DNA from: an uncultured bacterium
GTDB lineage: Bacteria; Zhuqueibacterota; QNDG01; DSAB01
Direction of reading: 5' to 3'
Assembly: GCA_964651045.1 (NCBI GenBank)
Contig: CAZYVD010000002.1
Location: 7,930 to 71,929 of the forward strand
DNA length: 64,000 nucleotides
The notes beneath the pieces were generated by a model that ran no database searches, had not been told where the DNA came from, and was given only the letters and a program-made list of their open reading frames with translations. Shown here piece after piece: positions 18,746 to 50,960 of the stretch (positions within the stretch are counted from its first letter, which is position 1; each line of letters opens with the position of its first letter). A program made the translations under genes and the position numbers.

Positions 18746-18774
18746 AAGAAGATTAAGATTATAAATTTTACAAT

Positions 18775-18800
18775 ACAGGGGCAGTAGCACCTGCCCCTGT
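18775..18800 (+). terminator. GC-rich hairpin (ACAGGGGCAG-tagcac-CTGCCCCTGT) 30 nt after the ppdK stop. It is a probable terminator without a strong U-tract
   Basis: A perfect 10-bp inverted repeat is seen directly in the sequence. Confidence 0.4.
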
Positions 18801-20800: not shown

Positions 20801-21058
20801 TTAAGGTTAATATCATGTTAATAGTTAGTGGATTCTCTTTACCTAAAATAAATCATATTATTTCAATATTTGTTCTTAACAATTTATTAACATCTATTCC
20901 ACAAAGGATATTCTTCTGTTGAAATTATAAGTTTCTATTATTTATATATTTAATGAATACATATTTTAACAACAACAACTATCCACATTCCTATTTTTAC
21001 TTGTATATTTTATATTAAATATTTAATTTATATATTAAATCAATAGGAGGACATAAAA
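20801..21058. other. AT-rich dnaA-dnaN intergenic region with degenerate DnaA boxes, a possible second oriC segment
   Basis: CTATCCACA at 20979-20987 is one mismatch from TTATCCACA, and TATTCCACA at 20895-20903 is two mismatches. Long A/T tracts lie around 20930-21040. Confidence 0.4.
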
Positions 21059-22177
21059 ATGAAATTTAATATTTTTCAGAGTCATCTCATAGAATCTCTT
21101 AACAATGTTGCCAGTGTAATTCCTAGTAGGTCTACTGCAACGGTTCTTGAGAACATTCTATTTGAACTTAATGATAATAATCTAAAAATTACTGGAACAG
21201 ATCTTGAGGTATATATAACCACCGAGGTTGTACCGGATAAGATCGAGAAGCAGGGGTCTGTAGCAATACCGGCAAAGGTACTGTTAGAGATGATTCGTTC
21301 GCTACCGGACATACCAATTCAATTTGAGATTGGCGATTCTAACAGAGTAAACATTACTACTGACAGGGGATATTATCAGATTACAGGAATTTCAAAAGAA
21401 AATTTCCCTGAACTTCCTGTATTCACAGAGGAAAAAACAATTGAATTAAAGAATATAGTACTCAAGAGAATGTTTGAAAAGACTATTTTTGCAGTATCAT
21501 CTGAGGAGTTGAGACCTGCTCTCATGGGTGTATACATGCAGGTAATGGCAGACGAACTTAGAATGGTGGCAACAGACGGCCATAGATTATCAAAAATAGT
21601 GGACAGGAGTTTCAGCTTTGATGATGCGCCTAAAAAGATGATTATTCCACCAAAGGCTGTACAGATTGCAATAAAAAATTTAGATGAAAAAGGATCCACA
21701 AAGATTACAATAGATGAACATGTAATATGTTTCAACTTTGACAGCACAAAGCTTTATACAAGGCTTGTAGAAGGAGAGTATCCAGATTATGAAAAGGTAA
21801 TACCAAGAGATAACGATAAGACATTAAAGGTCAATAAAGATCTACTTATGGATTCTGTGAAAAGAGTATCGCTTTTTTCCAGTTCATTAACAAATCAGGT
21901 AAGATTTTCTCTTTCATCCGATAAGCTTGTAATTTTTAGTGAAAATACAGATACTGGCGGCCAGGCAAGAGAAGAACTGGAAGCAGAATATTCTGATGAA
22001 GAAATGGAAATAGGATATAATGCTCAATATATCATGGATATACTTCGTCATATAGACAGTGATGATGTAACTTTTAATTTAAAGAGTCCTGTTAGAGCTG
22101 CTATTGTAACCCCAACTACACAGCTCGAAAACGAAGAATTTTTTATGCTGATTATGCCAATAAAAATAAGCAGTTAA
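21059..22177 (+). CDS. dnaN: DNA polymerase III beta sliding clamp
   Basis: It has a three-domain beta-clamp architecture and a length of 372 aa. Its position after dnaA is conserved. Confidence 0.9.
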   Translation: MKFNIFQSHLIESLNNVASVIPSRSTATVLENILFELNDNNLKITGTDLEVYITTEVVPDKIEKQGSVAIPAKVLLEMIRSLPDIPIQFEIGDSNRVNITTDRGYYQITGISKENFPELPVFTEEKTIELKNIVLKRMFEKTIFAVSSEELRPALMGVYMQVMADELRMVATDGHRLSKIVDRSFSFDDAPKKMIIPPKAVQIAIKNLDEKGSTKITIDEHVICFNFDSTKLYTRLVEGEYPDYEKVIPRDNDKTLKVNKDLLMDSVKRVSLFSSSLTNQVRFSLSSDKLVIFSENTDTGGQAREELEAEYSDEEMEIGYNAQYIMDILRHIDSDDVTFNLKSPVRAAIVTPTTQLENEEFFMLIMPIKISS

Positions 22178-22179
22178 TC

Positions 22180-24371
<2,192 letters not shown>

Positions 24372-24382
24372 TTAAATAGGGA

Positions 24383-26824
24383 TTGTTAATGACAGAGAGA
24401 AGAGAGAAAATAATACCGATCTATATTGAAGAGGAGATGCAGACATCTTATCTGAATTATTCCATGTCTATCATAGTATCGAGGGCACTTCCAGATGTAA
24501 GGGACGGATTAAAACCCGTTCACAGGCGGATACTTTATGGTATGCATGAACTAGCTCTTCATCCAAACAGGCCGTACAGAAAGTCAGCGAGAATAGTTGG
24601 AGATGTACTTGGTAAATACCATCCGCACGGAGATGCAGCGGTCTATGATTCTATGGTACGAATGGTACAGGAGTTTTCTCTTCGCTATCCTCTGGTAGAT
24701 GGACAGGGAAATTTTGGTTCTCTCGATGGTGATGCAGCAGCGGCAATGAGATATACAGAGGCGAGGCTTACACCAATAGCAGAAGAGATGCTGAAAGATA
24801 TAGATAAAAGAACTGTAGATTTTGTTCCCAATTTTGACGAGTCCGATAAAGAGCCAAAAGTACTGCCTTCAATGTTTCCAAACCTTCTCGTAAACGGATC
24901 TTCAGGAATTGCTGTTGGAATGGCAACAAACATACCGCCACATAATTTGAATGAGGTTGTAGATGCACTAATAGCATTGATCAACACCCCTGAGATAAAA
25001 ATAGAAACGTTAATGAAATATTTGAAGGGTCCAGATTTTCCCACAGGAGGAATCATATATGGCAGTGAGGGAATCTATGAGGCATACAGGACAGGAAGAG
25101 GCAGACTGAAGGTCAGGGCAAGAACAAGTCTGGAGAAGGGCAAGGGAGGAAGGGATTCGATAATAATAACAGAGATTCCATATCAGATAAACAAGTCAAA
25201 TCTTATAACATCGATTGTAAATTTAGTAAAGCAGAAGAAAATAGAGGGAATATCTGACATAAGAGATGAGTCTGACAGAGACGGAATGAGGATAGTAATA
25301 GAATTAAAGAGGGATGCTCAACCGAGAGTAATATTGAATCAACTATATGTTCATACACAGATGCAGACGACATATGGAGTAATACTTCTTGCTCTTGTAG
25401 ATGGAAGGCCGAGAGTTCTGACCCTGAAAGATATGCTGCAGCTGTTTATTGACCACAGACATGAGATCATTCTTCGTAGGACTCAATTTGAGCTTGAAAA
25501 GGCAGAGAAGAGAGCTCACATCCTTGAAGGTCTGAAGATAGCTCTTGATCATATAGATGAGATTGTTCAGCTCATTAAGAAATCGAGAAATCCAGAGACG
25601 GCAAAGAGTGGGCTGATGCGAAGATTTGGTCTTTCAGAAGAGCAGGCAAAGGCAATATTGGATATGAAGCTGCAACGATTGACGGGTCTTGAGAGAAAGA
25701 AGGTTGAGGAGGAGTATTTAGAATTAATAAAGAAGATAGAGAGATTCAAATTGATCCTGTCCAGCGAACAGAAACAGATGCAGCTAATTAAGGATGAACT
25801 CATTGAGATAAAGGAGAAGTATGGTGACGAGAGGAGGACAGAAATTGTATCAGATACTGAAGAGTTTAACATAGAGGACATGATAGCAGAAGAGGATATG
25901 GTTATAACAATAACACACTCTGGATACATCAAAAGATTTCCAGTTTCCGGCTATAAGAGACAGGCCAGAGGCGGTAAGGGAGTCATTGGAGCCAACATAA
26001 GAGAAGCGGATACGATCGAACACCTTTTTATTGCATCTACACACCATTATGTGCTTTTTCTTACAAACAAGGGGAGATGTTACTGGTTGAAGGTTTATGA
26101 GATGCCGCAGGCAGGAAGGGGCTCACGAGGAAGATCGATAGTGAACCTCTTAAGGGTAGAAAAAGATGAACAGATAACAGCAATACTGCCTGTGAGGACA
26201 TTTGAGCAGAATAGAAATATTATCATGGCAACAAGGAGGGGTACGGTAAAAAAATGCAGTCTCTCAGACTTCAGCAATCCAAGGAGCGTTGGAATTAATG
26301 CAATAAACCTTCGACCTGGAGATGAGTTAATATCGGCAAAGCTTACAGATGGAACTCAGGATATTATATTGGGCACTAAAAAGGGAAAGGCAATAAGGTT
26401 TCATGAATCGGGTGTGAGGGTCATGGGTCGTGCAGCAGCCGGTGTAAGGGGCATTACACTTTCAGAGGGGGATGAGGTTGTTGGTATGGTGGTTGCAAGT
26501 AGAGAAGACACCTTGATGGTAGTAACAGAGAGTGGTTATGGGAAGAGGTCTTTAATCTCAGACTATCGAATAACAGCAAGAGGAGGGAGAGGAGTTGTAA
26601 CACTTAAGATAACGCCCAAGGTAGGCGATATGCTAGCAATCATGGATGTAATGGATTCTGATGATCTTTTGATAATAACATCAAAGGGTCTTGTTGTACG
26701 GCAGAAGATAAGCAACATTAAGGTAATAGGTAGAAACACACAGGGAGTTAGACTGATAAGGCTTCAGGAGGGCGACAGGGTTGCAGATGTTGCCAGAGTT
26801 ATAAGAGAGGAGAGAGAACAGTAG
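24383..26824 (+). CDS. gyrA: DNA gyrase subunit A
   Basis: Motifs include '[26 protein letters not shown]', '[15 protein letters not shown]' (QRDR region) and the active-site '[11 protein letters not shown]'. C-terminal beta-pinwheel repeats are present. Confidence 0.95.
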
Positions 26825-26827
26825 GAG

Positions 26828-27271
26828 TTGGGGAGAAAAGGATTTGAAATTTTAGACCACACTGCAGATGTTAGATTGAGAGTGTGGGGTAAAGACTTGA
26901 GGGATATTCTTCAAAAGGCAGCAGAGGGAATGATAAATATAATGATGGATATAGAAACAATAAGAGAAGAGAAGGAGGATGAGGTTCGGATCGAGGGAGC
27001 AAATCCAGAGGAGCTGCTTTTAAAGTGGCTGAGAGAGATCTTGTTTAAAATTGAGAGCAAAGGAATGGTTTTCTCTAAATTCCGTATAAAAGAGGATAAT
27101 TTTTCCTACATGAGTTGTGATAAGTACTGGTTTTACGGTTTATTATATGGAGAAAAATATAACAGTGCGAGGCATGATATTTGCACAGAGATTAAAGCAG
27201 TTACAAGGCATGGTCTATATGTAGAAAAGAGAGGAGACAATTGGGAGTCAGAGATTCTGTTTGATATTTAG
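26828..27271 (+). CDS. Archease
   Basis: 'FEILDHTADVRLRVWGKDLRDILQKAAEGM' matches the archease N-terminal signature (F/YE.L.HTADIG..A.G). The C-terminal 'IKAVTRHGLYVEK...W..EILFDI' also fits. It has a TTG start 4 nt after the gyrA stop. Confidence 0.8.
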   Translation: MGRKGFEILDHTADVRLRVWGKDLRDILQKAAEGMINIMMDIETIREEKEDEVRIEGANPEELLLKWLREILFKIESKGMVFSKFRIKEDNFSYMSCDKYWFYGLLYGEKYNSARHDICTEIKAVTRHGLYVEKRGDNWESEILFDI

Positions 27272-34611: not shown

Positions 34612-35008
34612 GTCTACCTTTTATTTATAAAAACCTTTGCCGTAATATACCAATAATATTAATTTTATTCAACAATAAAATTTTGCTGTAATGTAAAAAT
34701 GGAAACCGGCAACCTCCCTCCTCCTTGAAGAACTTTGGGTTTTTGGGCAAAGATAAATTGATATATTGAGAGAACAATGAGTGTGGGAGGCTGATTGTAC
34801 AATGACGCCTTAGAGTCTAAACTCCTATAAAAGAAATTTTAAGTTCACCGTAACCCTAATTAAAACTCAAGCAAAACAGAGATTTTAACATATGTAGGGT
34901 CCCAAACAGGAGTTTGGGAACCAGGGGTAAAAGAATTGGTTATTCGACTTTTTATTTAAGGATTTGCCGAAACTCAGGAGCTCACCCCATCATACTTGTA
35001 GCATTTGA

Positions 35009-35180
35009 TATCCCCCTTTTCCAAAGGGGGATTACAGGGGGATTTTTTGTTAGAGGATAAATTTTTCTCTTTAGTAATGAATCTTAAGCGTTTCAACTCA
35101 CATGAATTAGATTCCTTTTTTTGGAGTGCGGCAACGTGTTGCCGCTTTCAAAAGCGGCGCCAAGGCGCCGCAATCCAAAA
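35009..35180. repeat. Repeat unit B, copy 1 (palindromes at 35128-35145 and 35154-35171, CCCCC/GGGGG hairpin at 35012-35030)
   Basis: It was read directly from the sequence and is near-identical to 35235-35406. Confidence 0.85.
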
Positions 35181-35234
35181 CTGATTTTTAACACATCTGG
35201 GTTCCCAAACAAAAGTCTGGGAACCAGAGGATTA

Positions 35235-35406
35235 TATCCCCCTTTTTCAAAGGGGGATTATAGGGGGATTTTTTGTTAGAGGATAAAATTTTCTCTTTAG
35301 TAATGAATCTTAAGCGTTTCAACTCAAACGAATTAGATTCCTTTTTTTGGAGTGCGGCAACGTGTTGCCGCTTTCAAAAGCGGCGCCAAGGCGCCGCAAT
35401 CCAAAA
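35235..35406. repeat. Repeat unit B, copy 2 (palindromes at 35354-35371 and 35380-35397, CCCCC/GGGGG hairpin at 35238-35256)
   Basis: It was read directly from the sequence and is near-identical to 35009-35180. Confidence 0.85.
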
Positions 35407-35589
35407 GCGAATCTCAAGCAAAACAGAATTTTTTAACACATGTGAGTTCACAAGCAGATTATTATGTCTGTCTATTCAAATGGACTCTTATGCTGCTCCT
35501 TGAATCACATAACCTTTTTAATCTTTTTATTTAAAATCTAATGAAAAACAGAAAAAGATCTTTAGATAGAAAAAGCCATCATCACAAGC

Positions 35590-38500
35590 TTAAATACTCG
35601 ATAGTTTTATGTTTGCATGTATGCTGAAATCGGTTATTGTTTTTGTTCCCTGATTTAATCTGAACTCCTTTCCGATTAGGAAACTTATACCTCCTGTTAC
35701 GCTTTTTGAGAATGTGTAGTCGATCTTGGGCTGAAAGGACCAGCTCTTGGTTTCCATCATTGTTGTATATCTTCCACCCTCAGGTTTTCTTCTGGTCTTG
35801 TTGTGTTTATTTGAGAATGATAGATTGAAGTTTATGTTGTTTTCTATTCTTTTGTTAAGCAGGGGCAACCGGAATCCTCCTTTGATTGTATGCCTTGCCG
35901 TGATTGTAAGATCAAAAGAAGAGGTTTTTTGTATAGTGCTTGGGTTTTGCACTGTAATAGAAATTGCCTGTGATGTGTTCACTCGTATTGTTGTGGTTAA
36001 CCCATTTTTAAATGTCATGGTGAACTGGATAAATGGCCTGAAGTCTCTACTCAACGTCTGGTTTGTTATTGAATTGCCTTTTTTTGATATACTATTTTTT
36101 CCGGAAAAGCTGTGATTCAATGATACGCTTCTGGTAATCTTTGAGAGAAGAGGAAGCTTCTCAAGGCCATTCCACTGTATGGTCCAATTTGGAATGGGAA
36201 TGCCCTTGTTTCGTGCCTCAGGGTTAAGGACAAGGAACGACTTTGAGATGTTTGTTGTGTTCTGAGTAGACTGTGTGTTTGTTCTTGAATATTTGTAGTC
36301 GAGTTTAACACTGATTCGTGATGTTACATTAAAACCCGTTCCAAGAGACATATTTTTATCGTACCGCAGAGAGCTCTTCTGGGTAGTAGCATCGTCAGAG
36401 AACTTAACACCTGGATCTTCGATGTTGAATCCCATAGTATAAGCAAAGGAGGGATCTGCTCCGTTGAGGATTCCGTAATGGTTTGCACTCTTTTTTTCCT
36501 GATAGGTAATGCTGATAGGATCGATTTTTTTAAAAACCTTTCCAAATATTCTAAACACAGATGCAAAAGAAAATCCCTTCTTTTCTTTTTTTTCAGAAAT
36601 CTTCGGCTCTTTCTTTTTCGGTTCTTTTCTTGTTACTGGCTGGCGTCTGCGAGTTCTCACGGTTCTTTTACCCCTGCCGCCTGGCTGGAACATCTTTGCT
36701 GTATTGAGGCTTGTTCGGATCATCATGTCTGAATTGACTCTCGTACTAGTTCCAGACTCTTTTATTGAGGGGTTGTTTTGCCACGAGTAATTTGCATTGT
36801 AGCTGAAATTTGTTGAGAGCCATTTTATTAGCGATGGATTGAATTTTGTTCCAAACTGCTGGGTTTTGTTTCGAGCCATTCCAGGATCAAGAGAGAAGTA
36901 GTCGGGAAGATGTTTTCCTCTCATATCAGATTTTCTTGATTTTGTGTAAGTAAGAGAGAGAGCCTGAAAGGGTTGAATGGAGGTAGAGACCTTTTGATTA
37001 AAAAAAGATGTTTTCACTGTATCGGAGAGACCCTCTCTTCTCAGAGTGTGCTCGTCTCTGTCGTCTCCTGCCATTTGAATGTTGAGATTCTTTGGAAGAT
37101 AGTAAAATTTTATTGATGCTATATTCTTAAAAATACCTTTTGTGCCCAGCCATTTGAAGGGCTGCAGGGGCTTTATATTATTAAAAGAAAGATTGTATTG
37201 AATAGAACCGCTTCTCTGTTTTTTAAGAGATGATGCTATTTGAGAACTGCTCATTTCGTTTTTTGTATAACTGTACCTACCAGAGAAGGGATCAACAAGA
37301 TACCGTAAGAATGGATTTTTTGATTTCACTTTTTTTGAAAACGAGATGTTGAAAGACTGGTTTTTGTTTATTGTCTGAATCGTCTTTAGTATGCTGTCAG
37401 GAGCCGTTCGATCTGTCACAAGGATATCTGATCCGGGGAAATATTTTGGAGTCTGTGTGTTTTTTGTGATGTTTAATGAAAAAGGTATAGACATTCCCCA
37501 TTCTGTTGGGAGGAATTTATGTAGATTGATGTTTGCATATATATTCCCCTGTCTGGAATTTGAACCTCCTCCGAATCTTTCATTTATTGTATGAAAATCT
37601 GCATCTTTTCTGTTGTATTCTCCATTAATTGATATGAAATCGCCGAGCTTTATATCTGCTCGAACCCTCATTGCCAGACCCTTTTCTTTTCTTATCCCTG
37701 AAAGACGAAGCTCATCTATCCACACTTCTCCTGTAAAGGGGGTGTTAGATTTATTTTTGATTCCAACCATAAACCACCTTATCTTTGTCAGTGAGGGCTG
37801 GCCATAAACAGAGAGGGTTTGATTGTCAGTAATTTTTTTTGATATAGAATCCTGTCCAAGGCTTACCATATCTCTTTTAAGTACTCCGAGCTCTTCGAAG
37901 TCTACTTCTATAAAATTTCGCTTTTTTTCTTCGTCCCAGCCAGGGTAGATTTTCAAAAGTTTTGCCTGATAGTATATTTTGTTTTCATTATCGGTTCCCC
38001 ATTGAAGGACAAACTCCAGAGAATCTGATTCAAGGAGAGAGGAGTTGATTCCTCCCCCATGGACAAACATCTTAAGCTTTTTGTAGTGAATGAAATTTTG
38101 TTCCTTAAAAAATCTTTTCTCGGCAAAGGCGGCTTCTCCTGGCATGAGATTGCGAAGCCCGAGAACAAGAGATTGTTCTTTTGAGTGAATTTTCTTCACA
38201 GGATCAAACTCGCCTTTTACACCTGGAGGAGGAGAGTAAGATGGATTGTCATGTGTGTTGACAACAGAGATGTACATTGTAGAATCGTCGTCTTGCTGGT
38301 ATGTGGAGTCGAGTTCACTCTTGATTCCTCTGAATTTCCATTCGTTGCCTGTGAGGTTAATCTCTGCAATTGTTATCTTTGTGTTTTGTTCCACTCCATC
38401 GACCCAGAGCCTTACAAATTCAATGCGAGACCAGCTCGGGGTTCCAAATTTTTCTGCATCATCAAGAGGAAGTCGGTAGAGGCGCCAGCCGTCCTTGTTT

Positions 38501-41500
38501 ATCGTATCTCCTCCGGCTATATAGATCCTGTCTTCACTTTCCAGGTCAAGAGAGAAGCTCAATTCATAGTAGTTGTTGACAAGATCGACATCTCCATTTC
38601 CATTGAGATCTTCTGAGTCGGGTTTTTTAATGTTTCCATCTCTTTCATTGTTTTCTGTCCCATTTATTAACTCGTAATTGTTGCTGCCATGTTCGTAGTA
38701 AAAATTATCGTAACTCCACGGCTCATCAGGACTTTTTTCGCCATCGCCATTTATGTCCCAGAAATCGTAAGGTTCGCAGTAGACATATGAATGGCCGTTT
38801 TTGGTTGTTGTTTTTACCTTTGCACTCACGTGAGGATAAAACAGTGTTGGAGGGTCGTCTCCAAATGCCCCGTCGAGACCTGTGTCTTCGTTGTAATTGG
38901 GAGTCAAATTGTTGTCTCTGAACTCACCAGGAGGAGCCTTGTCTTCTGTATCCCATTTATTATTCGGTATGACATCCTCGGATATCTGTCCAAGATCTAT
39001 GTGAAGCCTACCCCTTTCCCCTTTTACCCAGATTTCGAGAAATTTACTTTCAGTATGATCCCACGAGCCTGAGCTCAGGGAGCGCTGAACTCCACCCCAT
39101 GATACTTTCTTATCATCAAGAGTATCGACAGGAGTAAAATCAAGAGTGAGAACCTCGATATAGTTTCTATCTCCAAGTCCTGAGATTTCTTTGTTTGGCC
39201 ATATATCTTTTATATATACTGCATTTTTTGGGTTGTACCAGATGAGTCTTCCCATTGTAGAAAGAGAGGCCTTGGAGGAGTCCTTTAAGAGGGGTTGAGA
39301 ACAGAGTCCCCAATTTTTTCTTATCTTTCCCAGTGATATCTTTCTTATCGCACCCTCAAAGTCATCTATATATGCGACCCCATCAGGGTCTCCGGTTGCC
39401 CTGTTGTTTAGAGGATTTGGATTGGGAATTACCTGAGCTATCTCGCCTTCCACAGACACAGAGGATTTACCAGTTACGCTGAGAAGGGGAATGAGGTTTA
39501 ATCCGCTGGTTAGGAAATCGGGTTTGAAATGAAGAGCTCCGTTGATGTCCCAGATCATGTTTTTCATTGGCCCGTTTTGGCCGAGTCGGATTCTTCTGTC
39601 CAGGGTTTGCTGAGAGAGATAGAGGAAGGTTCCTCCAATAAAAGAACGGTTTGATTCATTCTCCCAGAGGGTGTACTCGGCACGTGCACCTATGAGAGCC
39701 TTTTTGTCGATTTCTACGAATTGATGCGATTCATAATTTATCTCTATTTCGGCATTGGGATTGGAGGCCTCTTCTGTGAGTATTGTGGCCGTTCCGGTGA
39801 AGTAATCTATTGTATAATCTGTTCCCTTCTGCAATCTTCTTCCGTTTAGTGTGACAGTCTCGCTTCCCTCAATGATGTTCATGCCAAGGTCGTAGGTTGT
39901 GCTTTGTTTGGAAGATTTGACCTCAATGTAGAATTTGCTCTGGCGCTGAATTACGTTGTTTACTGTTGTATCGTATAGAGCGGGGCTTCTGAGTTCGTTC
40001 ATCTCCTCAGGAAAGGGGTATGTTGTATCTAAAAGAGGATCGGGGTCAAAGGGTCTGAGATTTGGGAAGATGAGAATTCCGTGTGTCTTGTCTATTATGT
40101 TTGGATTATCGTCTATCTTGTTATCTGATTTATCGTTTCCGTTTTTGTCCTTGTTGTCGAGCCCGAAGATCTTCAGAAATCCAACAGTCTGCCCGCTGTT
40201 TAATTTTATAGCCTGTTCATCATTTCCAGATCCACCAGTCTTATGATATATATTTATCTCAAACCCCTCTTCAAAATCTTCACTGGTTATCTGTCCAACA
40301 CCAAGATCGTATACATTTTTCCATTCTAGGTTCCATGTCTTGTAGGAAGGATGAGGCCCCTTTGCCTTTATGAGTTTAAAGATTGGTGTAGATGAGGAGT
40401 TTGGGTTTTCAGATATGAGAGTTCCATAAGATTTTCCTGAACTGTCTCTGTATGCCACGGCAAGTACTTCGCTGTCCTGAAGAGGCATTTTCATGATAAT
40501 TGACCCTATTAATGGCATGAGAAAGTAGTCGACATTTGGTTCGAGACGAATAAAATAGCCGCTGTATATTTCGCTGGAGGTCTTTGTTGTGTCGGGATTG
40601 TTAGGGTCTCCTCTTGGCGTTGCCCATGCATAAAAAGAGCCCTCTTTTTTTGTCTCGTAGTATGCATCGGACTTATATACTTCAATCTCTGTTATGATCT
40701 TATTTGGATCGATTATGTGTTTCCCATTGCTGTCGAGTTTTGGGAATTGTGCCCTGTAGAGTGAATCCAGGAAAAAATAGGTCCACCGTTTATATTCATA
40801 ATCATTGATTTTTCTTGTATGCTTTTCCTTGCCGCCCGTGAAGGTCTTTTTCTTTTTTTCTCCCTTTTGCATGCTTGCGATTGCAGTAATGTCGAGATTT
40901 CCCAATTTCATTTTAGATTTGAACCCAAATAGACCTGAATTTTGAGCATTAACTGTAACGAATCGGGTAGAGGGCAGATTTAGGGTAGTGTTTCCTGCCT
41001 CAAGGCTCTGTATGATTGCATCTTCATCTCCCTTGTACTCGAGCTTAAGGGCATTTTCAAATTCAAATGTTCTTTCGCTGTTTTGATCTACCTTGATAGA
41101 GACATTCTCTCCTATCTTTCCAGTTATGTTGAAATTTTGTTTCTGTTTCATATTAAAGCTTGTGTTGGGTCTTCTGTTTGTAACATCCTTAACCCAGTCA
41201 TATTTTTCGTTTCTCAGTCCACCATCTATTGTAATGTTGCCATTAACGATCAGGCTTAGATTTTCTCCTCCAAACATGCGTTTGAAGGTCTTACTTTTTA
41301 TTTTCGGTGATTTTATTGTGATTCCGCCTTTTCCCCCTCTTCGGATTTTCATAGATTTTAGATTTTCATATACAGATTTTCTCCAGAGCCGATCTGTCTC
41401 AATCGTGCTTCTCTTTTTAAGATACTCCTGTAGAGAAAGATGAAGGGGAAGGAGAATGTCGAGTTTGTTTGATTGAAGTCTTATTGTGACGAGCCTTCCT

Positions 41501-41727
41501 GTAGAATCAAAGGAGGTTGAATATTTAAAAGAGCGTGGATATTTTATAGATAGAAGAGAAGGTGTCTGTGCAGTAGAAGGAACTCTTATTTTATCATGAT
41601 AGATTATGGGAGCGAAATTTGTCCACTTAAGAGTTGTCTTAAGCCCGATATCTGCTTTTAAGAAAAAGGTAGTGGTAAGGGCGATAAAGGGAAGAATCTT
41701 AAAAATTGTTTTTTTACAGGAGTTCAT
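35590..41727 (-). CDS. Giant (2045 aa) secreted outer-membrane protein. It is putatively the T9SS translocon SprA/Sov family, or otherwise a very large beta-barrel surface protein
   Basis: A single uninterrupted ORF carries an N-terminal signal peptide ('KILPFIALTTTFFLKADIG'). Alternating hydrophilic/hydrophobic beta-strand-like texture runs throughout with many Asn/Ser/Thr/Gly-rich turns. Size and composition fit SprA-family proteins of about 2000-2500 aa. A T9SS-CTD cargo protein in the same window shows the organism has a T9SS. Confidence 0.4.
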   Translation of the reverse strand: MNSCKKTIFKILPFIALTTTFFLKADIGLKTTLKWTNFAPIIYHDKIRVPSTAQTPSLLSIKYPRSFKYSTSFDSTGRLVTIRLQSNKLDILLPLHLSLQEYLKKRSTIETDRLWRKSVYENLKSMKIRRGGKGGITIKSPKIKSKTFKRMFGGENLSLIVNGNITIDGGLRNEKYDWVKDVTNRRPNTSFNMKQKQNFNITGKIGENVSIKVDQNSERTFEFENALKLEYKGDEDAIIQSLEAGNTTLNLPSTRFVTVNAQNSGLFGFKSKMKLGNLDITAIASMQKGEKKKKTFTGGKEKHTRKINDYEYKRWTYFFLDSLYRAQFPKLDSNGKHIIDPNKIITEIEVYKSDAYYETKKEGSFYAWATPRGDPNNPDTTKTSSEIYSGYFIRLEPNVDYFLMPLIGSIIMKMPLQDSEVLAVAYRDSSGKSYGTLISENPNSSSTPIFKLIKAKGPHPSYKTWNLEWKNVYDLGVGQITSEDFEEGFEINIYHKTGGSGNDEQAIKLNSGQTVGFLKIFGLDNKDKNGNDKSDNKIDDNPNIIDKTHGILIFPNLRPFDPDPLLDTTYPFPEEMNELRSPALYDTTVNNVIQRQSKFYIEVKSSKQSTTYDLGMNIIEGSETVTLNGRRLQKGTDYTIDYFTGTATILTEEASNPNAEIEINYESHQFVEIDKKALIGARAEYTLWENESNRSFIGGTFLYLSQQTLDRRIRLGQNGPMKNMIWDINGALHFKPDFLTSGLNLIPLLSVTGKSSVSVEGEIAQVIPNPNPLNNRATGDPDGVAYIDDFEGAIRKISLGKIRKNWGLCSQPLLKDSSKASLSTMGRLIWYNPKNAVYIKDIWPNKEISGLGDRNYIEVLTLDFTPVDTLDDKKVSWGGVQRSLSSGSWDHTESKFLEIWVKGERGRLHIDLGQISEDVIPNNKWDTEDKAPPGEFRDNNLTPNYNEDTGLDGAFGDDPPTLFYPHVSAKVKTTTKNGHSYVYCEPYDFWDINGDGEKSPDEPWSYDNFYYEHGSNNYELINGTENNERDGNIKKPDSEDLNGNGDVDLVNNYYELSFSLDLESEDRIYIAGGDTINKDGWRLYRLPLDDAEKFGTPSWSRIEFVRLWVDGVEQNTKITIAEINLTGNEWKFRGIKSELDSTYQQDDDSTMYISVVNTHDNPSYSPPPGVKGEFDPVKKIHSKEQSLVLGLRNLMPGEAAFAEKRFFKEQNFIHYKKLKMFVHGGGINSSLLESDSLEFVLQWGTDNENKIYYQAKLLKIYPGWDEEKKRNFIEVDFEELGVLKRDMVSLGQDSISKKITDNQTLSVYGQPSLTKIRWFMVGIKNKSNTPFTGEVWIDELRLSGIRKEKGLAMRVRADIKLGDFISINGEYNRKDADFHTINERFGGGSNSRQGNIYANINLHKFLPTEWGMSIPFSLNITKNTQTPKYFPGSDILVTDRTAPDSILKTIQTINKNQSFNISFSKKVKSKNPFLRYLVDPFSGRYSYTKNEMSSSQIASSLKKQRSGSIQYNLSFNNIKPLQPFKWLGTKGIFKNIASIKFYYLPKNLNIQMAGDDRDEHTLRREGLSDTVKTSFFNQKVSTSIQPFQALSLTYTKSRKSDMRGKHLPDYFSLDPGMARNKTQQFGTKFNPSLIKWLSTNFSYNANYSWQNNPSIKESGTSTRVNSDMMIRTSLNTAKMFQPGGRGKRTVRTRRRQPVTRKEPKKKEPKISEKKEKKGFSFASVFRIFGKVFKKIDPISITYQEKKSANHYGILNGADPSFAYTMGFNIEDPGVKFSDDATTQKSSLRYDKNMSLGTGFNVTSRISVKLDYKYSRTNTQSTQNTTNISKSFLVLNPEARNKGIPIPNWTIQWNGLEKLPLLSKITRSVSLNHSFSGKNSISKKGNSITNQTLSRDFRPFIQFTMTFKNGLTTTIRVNTSQAISITVQNPSTIQKTSSFDLTITARHTIKGGFRLPLLNKRIENNINFNLSFSNKHNKTRRKPEGGRYTTMMETKSWSFQPKIDYTFSKSVTGGISFLIGKEFRLNQGTKTITDFSIHANIKLSSI

Positions 41728-43347: not shown

Positions 43348-44420
43348 GAATACTGCCTCGATATATTAGGAGCCGCTTCATTGGAATCTTTCTATATTGT
43401 TTGCTGAGTGTTATTATAATATTTACCGTGGTTGACCTGGTTGAAAACTTAGACCAGTTTCTAGACAGAGATGTTCCAACAAGGATAGTATTTCTCTACT
43501 ATCTCTACTACACTCCATACAATATAGTACTAACACTTCCGGTTGCAACTCTTCTTGCCAGTGTTTTTTCTATAGGAACTCTGGCAAGACACAATGAAAC
43601 CATAGCAATGAAGGCCTTGGGATACAGCCTTTACAGGGTAATTAGAACTCTTCTTGGCATGGGACTGCTTATCAGCCTCTTCTCCTTTATGTTGGCAGAA
43701 GGAGTAGTAATCAAGGCAAACAGGAGAAAGGAAGATATTCAGGACACATATCTGCGAAACAGGATGTCTAGGGAATATACAAGAATAAGAAACATAGAGA
43801 TTCAAGAGCCACCAGACAGGATAATTACCATAAAATATTTTGATGCGAAAAGAAATATTGCCTATGGTGTTGAGATAAAAAGATACAGAAACAACAGATT
43901 AATATCAAGAATAGATGCTCCTTCTATGAGGTGGGATAAGGGAGAGTGGGTTGTGTCAAAGGGATATAGGAGAGAATTTAAAGATGAAAATGAGAAGGCA
44001 AGCATAATCGATAGTGAAGAGAGGTTTGATTTTCATATAACGCCAAAAGAGTTGATGCAGGCCCAGCTCAAGCCTGATGAGATGACAGTTGGTGAGCTTG
44101 TAGATTTTATTAAAAAGGTAAAGATTTCGGGTGGGGAAGTTCATAAATGGAAGACCGATTTGTATTTGAGATTTTCATATCCATTAACGAATTTGATAAT
44201 TGTACTCTTTAGTGTTCCGCTTGCGTACAATAGAAGAAGAAACAGTGTGGCAATGGGATTTGGCATAGCACTCACTGTATGTTTTTTTTATTTTGGTCTT
44301 GTAAAGATGGGACAGACAATTGGGCACAAGGGCGGTATGGATCCCATGTGTGCAGCATGGCTTGGTAATGGAATAATGGGTATTGGTGGAGTCATAAATT
44401 TGATCAAAACAAGGAAATGA
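43341..44420 (+). CDS. LptF/LptG-family permease (second paralog)
   Basis: 'MLRILPRYIRSRFIGIFLYCLLSVIIIFTVVDLVENLDQF' is the YjgP/YjgQ signature. It overlaps the upstream paralog by 7 bp. Confidence 0.8.
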   Translation: MLRILPRYIRSRFIGIFLYCLLSVIIIFTVVDLVENLDQFLDRDVPTRIVFLYYLYYTPYNIVLTLPVATLLASVFSIGTLARHNETIAMKALGYSLYRVIRTLLGMGLLISLFSFMLAEGVVIKANRRKEDIQDTYLRNRMSREYTRIRNIEIQEPPDRIITIKYFDAKRNIAYGVEIKRYRNNRLISRIDAPSMRWDKGEWVVSKGYRREFKDENEKASIIDSEERFDFHITPKELMQAQLKPDEMTVGELVDFIKKVKISGGEVHKWKTDLYLRFSYPLTNLIIVLFSVPLAYNRRRNSVAMGFGIALTVCFFYFGLVKMGQTIGHKGGMDPMCAAWLGNGIMGIGGVINLIKTRK

Positions 44421-44493
44421 CTTGACATTTTGGAATAAAAAGTTATTTTAATGTAGCTTAAAGGGTATAAAATTTAAGGAGAATTTATTAGTA

Positions 44494-44640
44494 ATGAAGA
44501 GAACATATCAACCAAGCAATAGAAAAAGAAGAAACAAACATGGTTTTAGGGCAAGGATGTCTTCCAAGTCAGGACGATTAATTCTAAAGAGGCGCAGGGC
44601 AAAGGGGCGTAAGCGATTAACAGTAAGCGATGAACGGTAA
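44494..44640 (+). CDS. rpmH: 50S ribosomal protein L34
   Basis: Manual translation gives [48 protein letters not shown], near-identical to bacterial L34. It is below the 60-aa cutoff of the ORF track. Confidence 0.9.
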
Positions 44641-44983
44641 GATGTTTCCTGATCAGCGCCTGCCAAAGAGCGAGATAATAAGGAAGAGAAAAGATTTTAA
44701 AGAAACATTACAGGATGGCAAGAGGTGGAGCGGAAGGTATCTGTCAATTTTTTATAAAGAGTCGGATGTAAGACAGGTTGCTTTTTCAGTCCCACGACGT
44801 GTTGGTAAGGCTGTAAAGAGGAATAGAATAAAAAGATTGATGAGAGAAGTTTATAGAAGACACAAGTACGAAATTGGCAGATTGAAATTAATTTTAGTAG
44901 CAAAAAATAGTGCTGTGAATGCAAACTTTTTAGAGATAGAGAAGGAGATCGAGAAGTTTATTCAGACCAAAGCGGATATGTAA
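44630..44983 (+). CDS. rnpA: Ribonuclease P protein component
   Basis: '[33 protein letters not shown]...[25 protein letters not shown]' matches RnpA. The true start may be the in-frame ATG at 44642, just after the rpmH stop. Confidence 0.85.
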
Positions 44984-45199
44984 ATGATATTTAAAGAGTT
45001 ATCCATAAAAGCTATTAAATTTTATAAGAAGTGGATATCTCCAGGGCTTCCATCGAGCTGCAGGTTCTATCCTACTTGCTCGGACTATACTGTCCAAGCC
45101 ATTGAAAAATATGGCTTTATGAAGGGTTTGTTTTTGGGTTTAAAAAGGATTCTACGCTGTCATCCGTTTAATCCCGGGGGTTATGATCCTTTACAATAA
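44984..45199 (+). CDS. yidD: Membrane protein insertion efficiency factor YidD
   Basis: 'WISPGLPSSCRFYPTCSDYTVQAIEKYGFMKGLFLGLKRILRCHPFNPGGYDP' is the YidD signature. Confidence 0.9.
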   Translation: MIFKELSIKAIKFYKKWISPGLPSSCRFYPTCSDYTVQAIEKYGFMKGLFLGLKRILRCHPFNPGGYDPLQ

Positions 45200-45221
45200 G
45201 AAATAATATAAGGAAAATAGT

Positions 45222-46871
45222 ATGGATAAGAATACAATAATAGCTTTTATCCTGATAGGAGTGATTCTTTTGTTATGGCCTATCTATATGAAAAAGGTTG
45301 TAGGAGTAAAAGAGAATACTCCTGAGAATGTAAATAAGATAGCCGCACAATCAGATAGTGTGGAAGGACAAGGTGCAGGGAGAGAAGAAAAGATCATTGC
45401 ACCAGAGAAGAACAAGAGAGTAAAAGAGAATATAGGCCAGGGCAGCCTCATAAGACTCCAATCATCCAGAAAGCCAGATACTATAAAAGTAAGCACAGAT
45501 ATTTTCGAGGGCAAAATATCTTCGCAGGGAGGAGGAACAATTGTTAGCTGGAAACTGAAGGAGTTTTATCTTCCAGAGGGAAAGGAGAGGTCCAAGGAGT
45601 TTGTTGAGTTGATTCCAGACTCTGCTGTTGGGAATCTGAGCATTATTGCAGGTGTTGATATGAGCAGGCTAGTTTTTGATGTGAAGTATGATACGATGGG
45701 AGAGGATAAAAGATATATATTTTCATACAGGTTTAAGGATGGAAAGAAAGTTGAAAAAGAGTTTATCATTCGGCCTGATAGTTATATAATTAATATGATA
45801 ATAAGACTCTCCTCATTCAATCAGTCAGATGTGGGAGACAGATATTCACTTCAATGGAGGTCTGGTCTTGAGTTTACAGAAAACGAGAGGAATAGAAAAA
45901 GAAATTTAAATTACTATCAGGCATGGGCACTCCAGGGAGGAGATGAAGTTCTTAAAACACGACTGAAGAATACAGGTGTGCAGGAGGGAATTACTAACTG
46001 GGCAGCAGTCAGAACAAAATATTTTTTAATGGCAATGATTCCCAAAAAACCTTTAGGAAAGGCTGTCAGGCTAAGCGGAAGGAAAGTTGATAATAATAAG
46101 TGGAAGAGTTTTGACATAAGGATCGACATGCCGTTTGAAGGCAAAGAGATAGAAACGTCTGAATTTATGATCTATCTTGGGCCAATGGAATACAAGCATT
46201 TAAAGGATGTAGGGGTTGGCCTTGAAAAGATGATGAACTTTGGCTGGGCGATAATAAAACCCTTCAGCATAGCCTTTTTCTATACGTTCAGATTCCTGTA
46301 TAAAATTATTGGTGATTATGGATGGGCAATAATAATATTTGCAATACTGATAAAGATAATCCTTTATCCTCTGACCCGTAAGAGTTATAAATCTATGAAG
46401 CAGATGCAGGAGCTCCAGCCACAGATAAATGCACTGAGAGAGAAATATAAAGATGATCCCCAGAGGTTGAATCAGGAGACCATGAAGCTATATAAGAAAC
46501 ATGGCGTAAATCCGATGGGTGGGTGTTTGCCGCTACTTCTACAGATGCCTGTATTGTTTGCGCTTTTCAATCTTTTCAGGACAACAATCATGCTGCGTCA
46601 GGCAGGATTTCTTGGACTGATCAAAGATCTCTCTTCTCCCGATCAGATATTAGGACCAGGAATAAACCTGTTGCCAATATTAATGGGAATAACGATGATC
46701 ATCCAGCAGAGGCTTTCGACACAGAATCCACAGCAAAAGGCAATGGCATTTTTCATGCCGATCTTTTTCCTGTTTATTTTTTATAGTCTTTCGGCAGGAT
46801 TGAACCTATACTATCTGACATTCAATATTCTGACAATAGCACAGGAGCTGGTTATCAAGAAACACAAATAG
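45222..46871 (+). CDS. yidC: Membrane protein insertase YidC
   Basis: An N-terminal TM is followed by a large periplasmic domain and a conserved C-terminal core ('YGWAIIIFAILIKIILYPLTRKSYKSMKQMQELQPQINALREKYKDDPQRLNQETMKLYKKHGVNPMGGCLPLLLQMPVLFALF'). Confidence 0.9.
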   Translation: MDKNTIIAFILIGVILLLWPIYMKKVVGVKENTPENVNKIAAQSDSVEGQGAGREEKIIAPEKNKRVKENIGQGSLIRLQSSRKPDTIKVSTDIFEGKISSQGGGTIVSWKLKEFYLPEGKERSKEFVELIPDSAVGNLSIIAGVDMSRLVFDVKYDTMGEDKRYIFSYRFKDGKKVEKEFIIRPDSYIINMIIRLSSFNQSDVGDRYSLQWRSGLEFTENERNRKRNLNYYQAWALQGGDEVLKTRLKNTGVQEGITNWAAVRTKYFLMAMIPKKPLGKAVRLSGRKVDNNKWKSFDIRIDMPFEGKEIETSEFMIYLGPMEYKHLKDVGVGLEKMMNFGWAIIKPFSIAFFYTFRFLYKIIGDYGWAIIIFAILIKIILYPLTRKSYKSMKQMQELQPQINALREKYKDDPQRLNQETMKLYKKHGVNPMGGCLPLLLQMPVLFALFNLFRTTIMLRQAGFLGLIKDLSSPDQILGPGINLLPILMGITMIIQQRLSTQNPQQKAMAFFMPIFFLFIFYSLSAGLNLYYLTFNILTIAQELVIKKHK

Positions 46872-46913
46872 ATATGGCTGTTTTTAGCTGGACATAAAAT
46901 TAATGAAAATTAC

Positions 46914-46953
46914 ATCTGCCCCATCGATTCTCACTTAAAAGATGGGGCGTTTT
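46914..46953 (+). terminator. Rho-independent terminator after yidC (GCCCCATC-gattctcacttaaaa-GATGGGGC + GTTTTATT)
   Basis: An 8-bp GC-rich stem plus a T-rich tail is seen directly in the sequence. Confidence 0.6.
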
Positions 46954-46954
46954 A

Positions 46955-48349
46955 TTGGAAAACATGATAACAAGACAGGAAGATACAATAGCAGCTATTT
47001 CTACTCCTCCGGGAGAGGGGGGAATAGCAATTGTTCGTATGAGCGGGAACAAGGCAGTTTCAATTGCAAGGAAGATTTTCAGCAGCAGGGAGCCTCTGGG
47101 ATCGCTTAAAGGCAAAAGAGCGTATCATGGCTGGATTGTAGATAATGGAGCCAGAATAGATGAAGTTGTGGTAACATTTTTTCTTGCACCAGATTCATAT
47201 ACGGGTGAGGATGTAGTGGAGATTAGCTGTCATGGTGGATATTTTGTAACCAGGCGTATTTTAGAATTGATAGTAAAAAGGGGAGCAAGAATAGCCGATC
47301 CAGGCGAGTTTACTAAGAGAAGATTTATAAATGGAAAGATCGATCTATCACAGGCCGAGGCAACAGCCGACATAATAAATGCAAAGACAGAAGCAGCACA
47401 CAGGGCTGCAGTGTCGCAGTTAAGCGGCGAGTTATACAGAAGAGTGAAAAAGATGTGTGATGATCTTATTAATATTTGTTCTCTGCTGGAGCTGGAGCTT
47501 GATTTTTGTGAAGAAGAGATAGAGTTTGAACCTCATAGCAAACAGCTGGAGAGAATTCTCTCAATCGAGAATGAGATGAAAGATCTTTTAAGCAGTTACG
47601 AAAGAGGCAGGATATGTCGTGATGGAGTGAAGATGGCAATAATTGGAAGAACGAATGTCGGGAAATCGAGTCTTCTTAATGCTATTGTAGAGAAGGAGAG
47701 AGCAATAGTTACAGATGTGCCAGGAACAACAAGAGACACATTAGATGAGATCTTAGACATAGAAGGAGTGTTGTTTAGGGTTACAGACACTGCAGGAATA
47801 AGAGAGACAGACGATCCTGTAGAGAGAGAGGGAGTGGAGCGCTCCATTAAGGCCTTTGAAGAGGCAGATGTTGTGCTGGCCGTTTTCGATGGAAGCGAGC
47901 CTCTTAAACCAGAAGATAGATTCATAATCGATCTGCTGGTGTCGAAGAAAAAAAGAACATTTTTGATAATAAATAAAATAGATCTTAAATTGAAAATCGA
48001 AGAGAGCGAGTTGAGGAGAACAGACTACAACATGGAAATTGTAAGGGTTTCTGCATTGAAAAAAACGGGAATAGATAAACTGATAAAGAAAATAAGAAGA
48101 AACCTTTTTTTTCAAGAAGGCGGTGTTGATGAAGAGGTGCTTCTTACCAATGTCAGGCACAGGGAGTCAATATTAAAGGCGATTTCCCATATTAAGACTG
48201 CACGGGAGACTATTGAGAAGGGGCTTTCACAGGAGTTTGTTGTGCTTGACCTGCGGGGAGCATTGGATTCTCTTGGCGAGATTACAGGAAAGACTACAAC
48301 AGATGATATATTGAATAGAATCTTTTCCGAGTTTTGTATTGGTAAATAG
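46955..48349 (+). CDS. mnmE: tRNA modification GTPase MnmE (TrmE)
   Basis: Motifs are 'DTIAAISTPPGEGGIAIVRMSG', the G-domain 'IIGRTNVGKSSLLNAI' and 'DTAGIRET', and the C-terminal 'CIGK'. The ORF track uses a TTG at 46955, but the likely real start is the ATG at 46964. Confidence 0.9.
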   Translation: MENMITRQEDTIAAISTPPGEGGIAIVRMSGNKAVSIARKIFSSREPLGSLKGKRAYHGWIVDNGARIDEVVVTFFLAPDSYTGEDVVEISCHGGYFVTRRILELIVKRGARIADPGEFTKRRFINGKIDLSQAEATADIINAKTEAAHRAAVSQLSGELYRRVKKMCDDLINICSLLELELDFCEEEIEFEPHSKQLERILSIENEMKDLLSSYERGRICRDGVKMAIIGRTNVGKSSLLNAIVEKERAIVTDVPGTTRDTLDEILDIEGVLFRVTDTAGIRETDDPVEREGVERSIKAFEEADVVLAVFDGSEPLKPEDRFIIDLLVSKKKRTFLIINKIDLKLKIEESELRRTDYNMEIVRVSALKKTGIDKLIKKIRRNLFFQEGGVDEEVLLTNVRHRESILKAISHIKTARETIEKGLSQEFVVLDLRGALDSLGEITGKTTTDDILNRIFSEFCIGK

Positions 48350-48391
48350 TGTTTCACGTGGAACGTTAAAAACTGGATCGAGAAAGTTAAA

Positions 48392-50320: not shown

Positions 50321-50960
50321 AGATCGGGGAATTCCATTCCAAGAACGCACCATTTTGAACTTCGAAAAGTATCAGAAATTAATTCTCGAGTGGAACAGTA
50401 GAGTAAATCTTATTTCGAAAAGAGATGAGGAGAGACTCATAACCAGACACTTTTTAAGTTCATTGGGATTGGTTACAGTGGTCAATATTGGAGAGAGGTC
50501 AAGGGTTTTGGATCTTGGTTCTGGGGGAGGATTCCCAGGGATACCCTTGAAATTGTTAAGACCAGACCTTGAGGTTTTTTTAGTCGAATCAAAAAGAAAG
50601 AAGGGAAATTTTCTCAACGAAGTCATTGGGTCTCTCGATCTTGAGGGTATAGAGGTTGTGGTTGATAGAGCGGAGAATATTGAAAATAAGATAGAGCCTG
50701 TTGACTTTGTTGTGAGCAGGGCTGTGACAAATCTATCTGATCTGTCGAGATGGAGCAGGGGGTTGCTAAAAAGGGAAGAGGGAAGGCTTGTTGCATTCAA
50801 GGGGATGAATCTGAAAAAGGAACTTGAGATGTTGAAGAAAAGAGCCTCGAAACTAAGAGTTAAGGGATGGAGGGTTTCTCGATATGATCCCTTTCCATCG
50901 GTTTTCAATCTCAAAGAAAGCTATATAGTGGAAGTATTTTTTTATAGAGAGTTATTATGA
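50268..50960 (+). CDS. rsmG: 16S rRNA (guanine527-N7)-methyltransferase RsmG (GidB)
   Basis: It contains 'ILEWNSRVNLISKRDEERLITRHFLSSL' and the SAM motif 'VLDLGSGGGFPGIPLKL'. The annotated start overlaps mnmG by 53 bp, so the real start is uncertain (possibly 50277). Confidence 0.8.
   Translation: MREMFHVEQIGLLKKALEDRGIPFQERTILNFEKYQKLILEWNSRVNLISKRDEERLITRHFLSSLGLVTVVNIGERSRVLDLGSGGGFPGIPLKLLRPDLEVFLVESKRKKGNFLNEVIGSLDLEGIEVVVDRAENIENKIEPVDFVVSRAVTNLSDLSRWSRGLLKREEGRLVAFKGMNLKKELEMLKKRASKLRVKGWRVSRYDPFPSVFNLKESYIVEVFFYRELL

Follow-up and report, generated by a model that had tools for sequence, protein, structure and literature searches.

A cluster of short palindromic repeats, probably of the REP/BIME type, between sprA and a CotH operon of an uncultured bacterium

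We analysed a stretch of 64,000 nucleotides (the window) from an uncultured bacterium of the GTDB lineage Zhuqueibacterota (assembly GCA_964651045.1, contig CAZYVD010000002.1), in which the 978-bp spacer (34612-35589) between two minus-strand genes, sprA and the first gene of a CotH operon, carries a duplicated array of GC-rich hairpins. With a probability of about 0.8, short palindromic repeats of the REP (repetitive extragenic palindromic) or BIME (bacterial interspersed mosaic element) type form an intergenic cluster here that was duplicated once in tandem. This reading follows from the dispersal of the repeats in the same genome, their mosaic nature, the family to which their double hairpin (module H) belongs, the link of that family to a REP-associated tyrosine transposase (RAYT), and the fit to published descriptions of REPs. 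The class of element is ordinary, namely selfish or semi-domesticated intergenic DNA, and it is notable only for the occurrence of its core hairpin pair's family in several distant phyla.

Hairpin modules in the spacer and elsewhere in the genome

A repeat search of the spacer identified a direct repeat of two copies, R1 (35008-35191) and R2 (35234-35417). Pairwise alignment of their common core (35008-35184 and 35234-35410) indicated five substitutions and 97.1% identity over 173 nt. An earlier reading made from the letters of the window alone (the sequence-only reading) had described a tandem, near-identical repeat of 172 bp at about 98% identity. The tandem near-identical repeat was confirmed, with the identity corrected to 97%; the 172-bp unit is real and corresponds to R only, while the repeat period is 226 bp, composed of an R unit of approximately 177 bp and a 49-bp F unit. 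Three copies of a flanking unit had also been noted, and F was indeed found three times (34863-34927, 35185-35230, and 35410-35456) with identities of 79-85%. The order in the spacer is F1 - 80 nt - R1 - F2 - R2 - F3. Tandem Repeats Finder missed the 226-bp repeat, which has just two copies. The fold of one 226-nt period was far more stable than those of shuffled sequences, with z scores of -7.6 and -8.0 for the two strands.

The repeated composite is a mosaic of the independent hairpin modules F, P, M, and H. In an alignment of six copies, modules were present, absent, or permuted, and a 29-nt deletion in M and a flipped hairpin loop were also observed. Module H reads TTTT-GGAGT-(GCGGCAAC GT GTTGCCGC)-TTTCAAAA-(GCGGCGCC AA GGCGCCGC)-AATCC-AAAA; it consists of two hairpins within an outer stem and is nearly identical when read on either strand. 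In R1, a T-run is followed by the tag GGAGT (35123-35127), the first hairpin (35128-35145), the spacer TTTCAAAA, the second hairpin (35154-35171), the tag complement AATCC (35172-35176), and AAAA. Each hairpin is 18 nt long with an 8-bp stem, in keeping with the short imperfect palindromes (about 20-65 nt) of REPs, and the REP unit can be described as an 18-nt GCGGC-N8-GCCGC hairpin that has a 5-nt tag at its foot (GGAGT in one arm, GGATT in the other) and is followed by TTT. The hairpins had been taken for perfect 18-bp palindromes; their stems in fact enclose two unpaired central bases, and each differs from its own reverse complement at two positions. The F hairpins, for which different but still complementary sequences and selection for RNA structure had been proposed, did not bear this out either. 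F1 (GGGTCCCAAAC/GTTTGGGAACC) and F2 (GGTTCCCAAAC/GTCTGGGAACC) each contain one mismatch at different positions, no compensatory changes were found, and F3 and a copy on another contig (L147, below) are decayed.

Within the window, the hairpin motifs were confined to these sites (expected number 0 in 100 shuffles); searches by blastn, nhmmer, and a covariance model detected no further copies in it and none in orthologous CotH loci except a weak candidate in L004, and the modules were absent from an extra 8.5 kb and 7 kb past its ends. A metagenome scan with the inter-hairpin junction GCCGCTTTCAAAAGCGGC retrieved the contig L147 (JGI Ga0190360_1000210), which is 32.9 kb long and comes from a JGI sample that also contains one copy of the CotH contig. 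On L147, an F+R composite at 92.7% identity over 219 nt is accompanied by a shorter R variant having the 29-nt M deletion, by isolated P pieces, by an additional hairpin module (K), and by a solitary hairpin that has decayed. The copies occupy two spacers between minus-strand genes, and the remainder of the window had no match to L147. Window positions 34989-35067 matched L147 279-357 (91%), and the AT-rich M region was also approximately 93% conserved between the unlinked loci; its second weak hairpin (GAATCT..AGATTC) is deleted in L147 copy A2. The tetranucleotide signature of L147 correlated with that of the window at r 0.912, compared with 0.87-0.96 for 12-kb pieces of the window and no more than 0.57 for other loci of similar GC. 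Another contig, L289 (ENA sample ERZ27248172), has the L147 spacer at 100% identity, and the contig of the window is present in the same sample. P and F are also found in a fourth spacer, on L289, where they have diverged (77-84% identity) and lie in the opposite orientation in the gap of two convergent genes.

A second contig of this genome carries the composite, which is present in four samples, and recombined, partly decayed modules were recovered from at least four other spacers in the genome; the window and L147/L289 are unlinked. A recent duplication and a REP-like or MITE-like (miniature inverted-repeat transposable element) structured repeat had been suggested for the region, with absence of the unit elsewhere as the finding that would speak against it; both the duplication and the structured repeat hold, given the copies in L147/L289 and a core that belongs to a REP family flanking a RAYT gene. 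With the covariance model, the window gave just two matches (82 bits) and L147 another two; the remaining matches were decayed copies. In approximately 104 kb of this genome, four intact H doublets and decayed solos were located in 3-4 spacers, one cluster being within the 64-kb window. Part of the likeness between the two L147 spacers is accounted for by segmental duplication of tandem paralogous genes.

The repeats also mark assembly ends in Logan, ENA, and JGI contigs. Logan contigs end at window positions 35037 and ~35390 (one of them, L248, inside H of R2), and 3-kb contigs from two other samples stop on both sides of the L147 gene. Both flanking genes of the window's spacer are nevertheless together on at least two contigs of 50-200 kb.

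Other repeated sequences were observed on these contigs. A block of ~280-357 nt, termed X, has copies of 93.8% identity (L147 1-357 and 2940-3296; L289 1333-1867); it precedes each of two tandem paralogous genes for proteins with a type IX secretion system (T9SS) tail (P0135 and P0136, 93% identical), terminates in the hairpin ATCGCCCAGCATAGATATACTGGGCGAT followed by a T-run on the minus strand, and had no Rfam match. Module K (GTGTGGCACGACCCTTGTGGTCGTGC) forms a 100% identical pair (L147 356-394 and 3421-3459) and co-clusters with P and F, and it is not in the window. The fourth spacer lies at L289 7100-7250, where the diverged P (ATCCTCCTTTCTCAAAGGGGGACTTAAAGGGGATTTTT) and F (TTCCCAAACCCCTGTTTGGGAA) are placed between convergent genes for a DUF4926 protein and a leucine-rich repeat (LRR) protein; the orientation of P there is that of a terminator for the upstream gene. 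Two independent ENA contigs, L249 and L250, share an end point ~170 nt past serS, approximately 8.5 kb to the left of the window, which points to a further repeat that interrupts assembly or to an rRNA/tRNA locus; the site has no copy of the modules.

The double hairpin in other phyla and beside a transposase gene

Judged by its sequence, the H pair is a member of a REP family whose copies, in other bacteria, border the gene of a REP-associated tyrosine (HUH/Y1) transposase. The tagged unit has the form TTTGGAGT-GCGGC..GCCGC-TTT, and head-to-head pairs of it make up H. A GTDB scan with the first hairpin listed 121 exact matches; in 24 of those listed, one side alone bears GGA[G/C/T]T and the opposite side TTT/AAA (expected number below 1), and the majority of the matches listed were chance occurrences in coding DNA. 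The tagged ones among them belonged to metagenome-assembled genomes (MAGs) of Verrucomicrobiota, Planctomycetota, Anaerolineae, and Acidobacteriota. As in a REP tag, GGA[G/C/T]T is directly 5' of GCGGC on one side only. The metagenome scan yielded many GC-rich doublets of the form TTTGGAGT-GCGGC..GCCGC-TTTCAAAA-GCGGC..GCCGC-ACTCCAAA, and 32 stretches with the tagged unit were identified in IMG/VR, so that the carriers of the family comprise MAGs of these four groups and IMG/VR contigs. Head-to-head doublets with the 8-nt spacer, the inverted pairs expected of REPs, were present in the window, in L147, and in 27 other loci. An IMG/VR scan with the inter-hairpin junction gave chance matches only, blastn of the H module against PLSDB plasmids gave no match, and all-vs-all blastp revealed no recurrent neighbour protein around family members.

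We aligned 30 distinct doublets in 68 columns. The members were gathered by patterns that fix GCGGC/GCCGC, and only the covariation of the interior and the tag is therefore informative. A model of two local hairpins and an outer stem was 93% paired in the 30 doublets, compared with 85% in shuffles, and the hairpin stems were 97.5-97.9% paired with compensatory changes. The covariation score was 0.230 versus 0.082 in shuffles; 0 of 500 shuffles reached 0.230, and slid controls remained at or below 0.08. Changes on both sides were observed at hairpin positions 15/25, 16/24, 44/54, and 45/53 and at the outer position 8/61, and the outer tag pair covaries (GC 19, CG 5, UA 2). A single long hairpin, as in a perfect REPIN, was rejected: its interior pairing is unsupported (18 of 30 unpaired at 15/54), even though the minimum free energy fold of the single sequence prefers it. 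Stem sequences are conserved and loop sequences vary freely, as in REP elements and unlike functional RNAs. Many family members are located 3-8 nt from the ends of open reading frames (ORFs), the ORF context being noisy in GC-rich loci.

All 2.18 Mb of fetched DNA was scanned for motifs. Two 175-amino-acid ORFs with NHYH...YVHYNP were identified in Verrucomicrobiota MAG loci (L088 749-1273 and L119 4093-4617). They matched NCBIfam NF047646, 'REP-associated tyrosine transposase', over the full length with E-values of 4.5e-21 and 1.2e-20, the match to Pfam Y1_Tnp was weak, and their sole PDB match was E. coli TnpA-REP (4ER8). Tagged hairpin trimers occur within 100 nt on both sides of the ORFs and include GCGGCAAC(GT/AC)GTTGCCGC, the window's own hairpin. 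As far as its sequence can be read, this arrangement is the REPtron layout described for REP/RAYT systems (PMC6006769). No RAYT was found in the window, L147, L286, L289, L249, or L251, and an IMG/VR scan for relatives of the L088/L119 RAYT returned none.

Several observations were made on individual loci of the family. In L004, a relative whose CotH is 56% identical, a weak AT-richer doublet candidate (TTTGGAGTGCAGC..., 16.8 bits) is located directly after a gene end (16626-16687). L027, L034, L035, and L111 of the Anaerolineales MAG S143 contain long arrays of GTAG...CTAC palindromes (GTAGGGGCGAACGGCCGTTCGCCCCTAC), the GCGGCAACGTGTTGCCGC hairpin, and a CTTCTGTG-rich unit, and resemble a GTAG-REP cluster of the classical kind in which the window's hairpin is included as well. 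In the Anaerolineae MAG H71_738 (L068 4040-4230), the hairpin GCGGCAACGTGTTGCCGC and AATCCAAA form a tandem array of ~7 units with a 26-nt period and point variants. The Verrucomicrobiae contig L040 has two copies of the Acido-Lenti-1 RNA RF01687 (1327-1373 and 1506-1552), one at gathering score and one weaker, approximately 300 nt from a three-hairpin GGAGT-tagged module.

Layout of the locus and competing explanations

The features of the spacer and its neighbours are summarized in Table 1. The array is downstream of sprA and upstream of the CotH operon, in which VTC and DUF4956 genes come after CotH. Sigma-70-like promoter candidates were predicted on the minus strand at 34821-34794 and 34672-34644, and a tRNA/tmRNA scan gave none. 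A mechanical ORF of 76 amino acids (35273-35503, plus strand) runs through the GC-rich repeats, as does one of 172 amino acids in L147 (487-1005, plus strand); neither had a Pfam match, both are probably spurious, and such ORFs could be miscalled as genes. The window is the neighbourhood of the chromosomal origin, with dnaA (19415-20800), dnaN, DciA, gyrB, gyrA, and rnpA-yidC-mnmE-mnmG-rsmG in 18745-27000 and 44400-51000, three perfect DnaA boxes (19235, 19426, and 19447), and a turn of the cumulative GC skew near 10-12 kb. The closest gyrB homologue had 83% identity and was annotated simply as 'bacterium'. The spacer itself is not an oriC or DnaA-box cluster: 34612-35589 contains no TTATCCACA box at one mismatch or fewer, and the perfect boxes are at 19235-19455 beside dnaA.

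Table 1 Modules of the spacer and flanking genes, in window coordinates
Feature	Position	Strand	Basis and remarks
F1, leader (AAACTCAAGCAAAACAGAGATTTTAACATATGT) and hairpin 34897-34922 with one G/A mismatch	34863-34927		Direct-repeat families, inverted repeat, pattern search; 80% identical to F2
F1-R1 spacer	34928-35007		Final ~19 nt, 34989-35007 (...GCATTTGAT), are a 'leader' that also precedes P modules in L147
P module of R1, ATCCCCC-loop-GGGGGAT hairpin 35010-35032, then second GGGGG and TTTTTTG	35008-35049		Six P copies aligned; fold
M module of R1, AT-rich, two weak hairpins	35050-35115		Fold, alignment
H module of R1, REP doublet, head-to-head heterodimer	35116-35184		Covariance model match 35119-35180, 82 bits, E 9e-24
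F2, shortened leader and hairpin 35200-35225, one A/C mismatch on plus strand, G-U on minus strand	35185-35233		Repeat and pattern search, fold
P module of R2, hairpin 35236-35258	35234-35275		Repeat search, pattern search, alignment
M module of R2	35276-35341		Alignment, fold
H module of R2, REP doublet, hairpins 35354-35371 and 35380-35397	35342-35410		Covariance model match 35345-35406, 82 bits
F3, decayed, leader kept, hairpin lost	35410-35456		Repeat search, alignment
SprA_N-domain protein (sprA), 2045 amino acids, outer-membrane (type IX secretion)	35590-41727	-	Pfam PF14349, E 2.7e-39; upstream gene
CotH kinase/beta-helix protein, 958 amino acids	31735-34611	-	First gene of CotH-VTC-DUF4956 operon; downstream gene

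For a REP/BIME-type cluster, we propose that the family spread as single-stranded hairpin DNA handled in trans by a RAYT, and that the modules were reshuffled by recombination between them. The F-R-F-R-F order would result from a local duplication of 226 bp (R+F), produced when the F units on either side of R recombined unequally or allowed slippage. When the minus strand is transcribed, each H would become part of the 3' end of the sprA mRNA and form a stable GC hairpin followed by UUUU; the minus strand reads the hairpin GCGGCGCCUUGGCGCCGC and then UUUU, and in R2 the second hairpin is followed by TTTTGAAA, 184-245 nt past the sprA stop codon. The two H copies could thereby insulate the CotH-VTC-DUF4956 operon, either as a stack of imperfect intrinsic terminators or by protecting the 3' end of the message, and a secondary terminator/insulator role after sprA is plausible from these features. 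The array probably sets the transcriptional boundary between sprA and the putative polyphosphate/CotH operon, and it tells nothing specific on the regulation of the CotH operon.

Several points weigh against this interpretation. The copy number seen in the genome is small, and two of the four intact H doublets result from the local duplication. No target-site duplication or empty site was found, and we infer the mobility of the repeats. A transposase of whatever kind was not detected in the ~104 kb of this genome that the analysis covered, and a cognate RAYT of the organism is therefore hypothetical; the L088 and L119 ORFs scored 75 and 74 bits, just below the NF047646 cut-off of 80, and, as 90% identical orthologues, are effectively one independent case. 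The public collections were searched with sequences of module H. As for termination, the U-tracts are short (UUUU(G) and UUUC), a consensus terminator scan (at least 5 T in 8 nt) called neither H nor P, and the doublets are 184 and 410 nt past the sprA stop codon rather than directly after it.

A function-first explanation takes the hairpins as host-selected bidirectional terminator/insulator cassettes rather than mobile DNA, with the same design reused after many genes and the tandem copy reinforcing termination between sprA and the CotH operon. The minus strand reads GCGGCGCCTTGGCGCCGC followed by TTTTGAAA, the plus strand reads GCGGCAACGTGTTGCCGC followed by TTTC and has P followed by TTTTTTG, and the head-to-head layout offers a tag-hairpin-TTT unit first to transcripts from either side. 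Family members are often 3-8 nt past stop codons, sometimes filling the gap between convergent genes (L175), and singletons follow a co-oriented ORF end in 20 cases versus 9, albeit in a noisy ORF context. We nevertheless consider it unlikely that termination is the whole explanation: the same hairpins flank the RAYT gene, copies are decayed and rearranged, the P T-run is TTTGTTG in other copies, P faces away from flanking genes in three of four spacers and module orientation varies, the doublets here are far from the stop codon, and the terminator scan was negative. Such a function is moreover compatible with REP/BIME-type repeats as a secondary role.

Tandem small RNA (sRNA) genes, one of the alternatives raised by the sequence-only reading, would make each R (or F+P) a structured trans-acting or antisense sRNA on the plus strand, ending at P or H. 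The very stable fold (z about -8), the resemblance of P to a terminator on the plus strand, and the conservation of the AT-rich M between unlinked loci agree with this. Rfam returned 0 matches in the window at gathering score (best sub-threshold E ~1, LhrC and PyrR); at gathering and permissive thresholds nothing was found for L147 and only the unrelated neighbouring Acido-Lenti-1 in 14 family-bearing loci. In addition, promoter prediction gave none ahead of R, the two strands fold equally well, modules are shuffled, truncated, and inverted between loci, the P T-run is not conserved, and recent copying accounts for the high identity. We regard sRNA genes as quite improbable. A cis-regulatory leader or protein-binding array for the CotH-VTC-DUF4956 operon, also raised earlier, would suit repeated palindromes upstream of an operon. 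Relatives of CotH are few (identity of 56% or less), and three orthologous operons (CotH 51-56% identical) have 86-157-bp upstream spacers, different upstream genes, and no similar DNA, and on this basis a conserved leader was rejected; the same composite also stands beside unrelated genes in L147/L289, and we attach almost no weight to this explanation. Nor do we give appreciable credence to a neutral one-off duplication of unique spacer DNA or an assembly artefact. Only two copies are in the 64-kb window and short-read assemblies break here, but the composite is on another contig of the same genome and in four samples (L147/L289), R1 and R2 differ at five sites, and at least two long contigs span both flanking genes.

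Relation to known repeat systems

REP-RAYT systems have been characterised mostly in Proteobacteria. What we find moderately interesting in our result is a REP family tagged with GGAGT that crosses phyla, together with its RAYT clade. The tag and hairpin foot of the family hardly vary among Verrucomicrobiota, Planctomycetota, Acidobacteriota, Anaerolineae, an uncultivated AT-rich lineage with a T9SS, and some viral contigs. Tentatively, the double hairpin may mark an undescribed 'GGAGT-tagged' REP superfamily with its own RAYT subclass (NHYH/YVHYNP), although we lean against rather than towards this. A literature search by sequence and by REPIN/RAYT with phylum names returned no description of a GGAGT tag, which is not proof of novelty. 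If such a superfamily exists, it would imply repeated inter-phylum transfer of REP-RAYT systems or an unusually constrained transposase-DNA recognition code, and REPs might persist in the window's genome without a resident RAYT. Its presence in the Planctomycetota-Verrucomicrobiota-Chlamydiota (PVC) group, Acidobacteriota, Chloroflexota, and the uncultivated T9SS-bearing lineage would widen the known host range of REP-RAYT systems and would allow one to test how the guide sequence is recognised by a Y1 transposase. On the practical side, short-read assemblies of this organism are interrupted by the repeats at each locus that was examined, and spurious ORFs arise from them; recognition of the repeats improves MAG finishing and gene calling.

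Rho-independent (bidirectional) terminators resemble the array in having GC-rich stems with a T-run behind them on one strand or on both, and in lying between genes that run in the same direction or converge; they differ from it in that here tags and stems are conserved, U-tracts are short, copies are multiple with decayed relatives, and a transposase gene is associated. MITEs such as Correia/NEMIS of Neisseria are likewise small, non-coding, structured, and multi-copy, can carry terminators, and resemble an R bracketed by similar F units. The F units, however, are direct repeats, each palindromic, rather than the terminal inverted repeats of an insertion sequence (IS); no duplicated flanking bases were found in the window or in L147 415-680, and no parent IS was found, and we rejected a MITE. 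BOX elements of Streptococcus pneumoniae and other modular mosaic repeats are also dispersed, strongly folding, non-coding intergenic composites of a few module types in variable number and order; they have no sequence relationship to the array, whose modules are individual palindromes, one of them a REP doublet.

The closest likeness is to the REP/BIME/REPIN-RAYT systems of E. coli, Pseudomonas, and Stenotrophomonas. REPs were described by Di Nocera et al. (PMC3733652) as tagged palindromes with GTAG or CGTC tags, arranged as head-to-head or tail-to-tail homo- or heterodimers and trimers, mostly past coding regions between same-direction or convergent genes. In contrast to these, the tag here is GGAGT (GA[G/C/T]T next to the foot) and the 8-nt spacer TTTCAAAA/TTTGGAAA is very short and conserved. 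At least five phyla, and some IMG/VR contigs, have the tag and foot (GGAGT-GCGGC) in common, whereas species-specificity is the usual description of REPs (Quentin et al., PMC6006769), and the RAYT of the family, with NHYH, WF, and YVHYNP motifs, falls under the NCBIfam cut-off and was not seen in ~104 kb of the window's genome. The array and its family nevertheless share with the known systems a short GC-rich hairpin with a conserved tag 5' of its foot, inverted pairs in the form of head-to-head heterodimers, trimers and larger clusters reiterated together with flanking DNA, an intergenic location often just past stop codons, and, in two loci, the same hairpins on both sides of a RAYT homologue.

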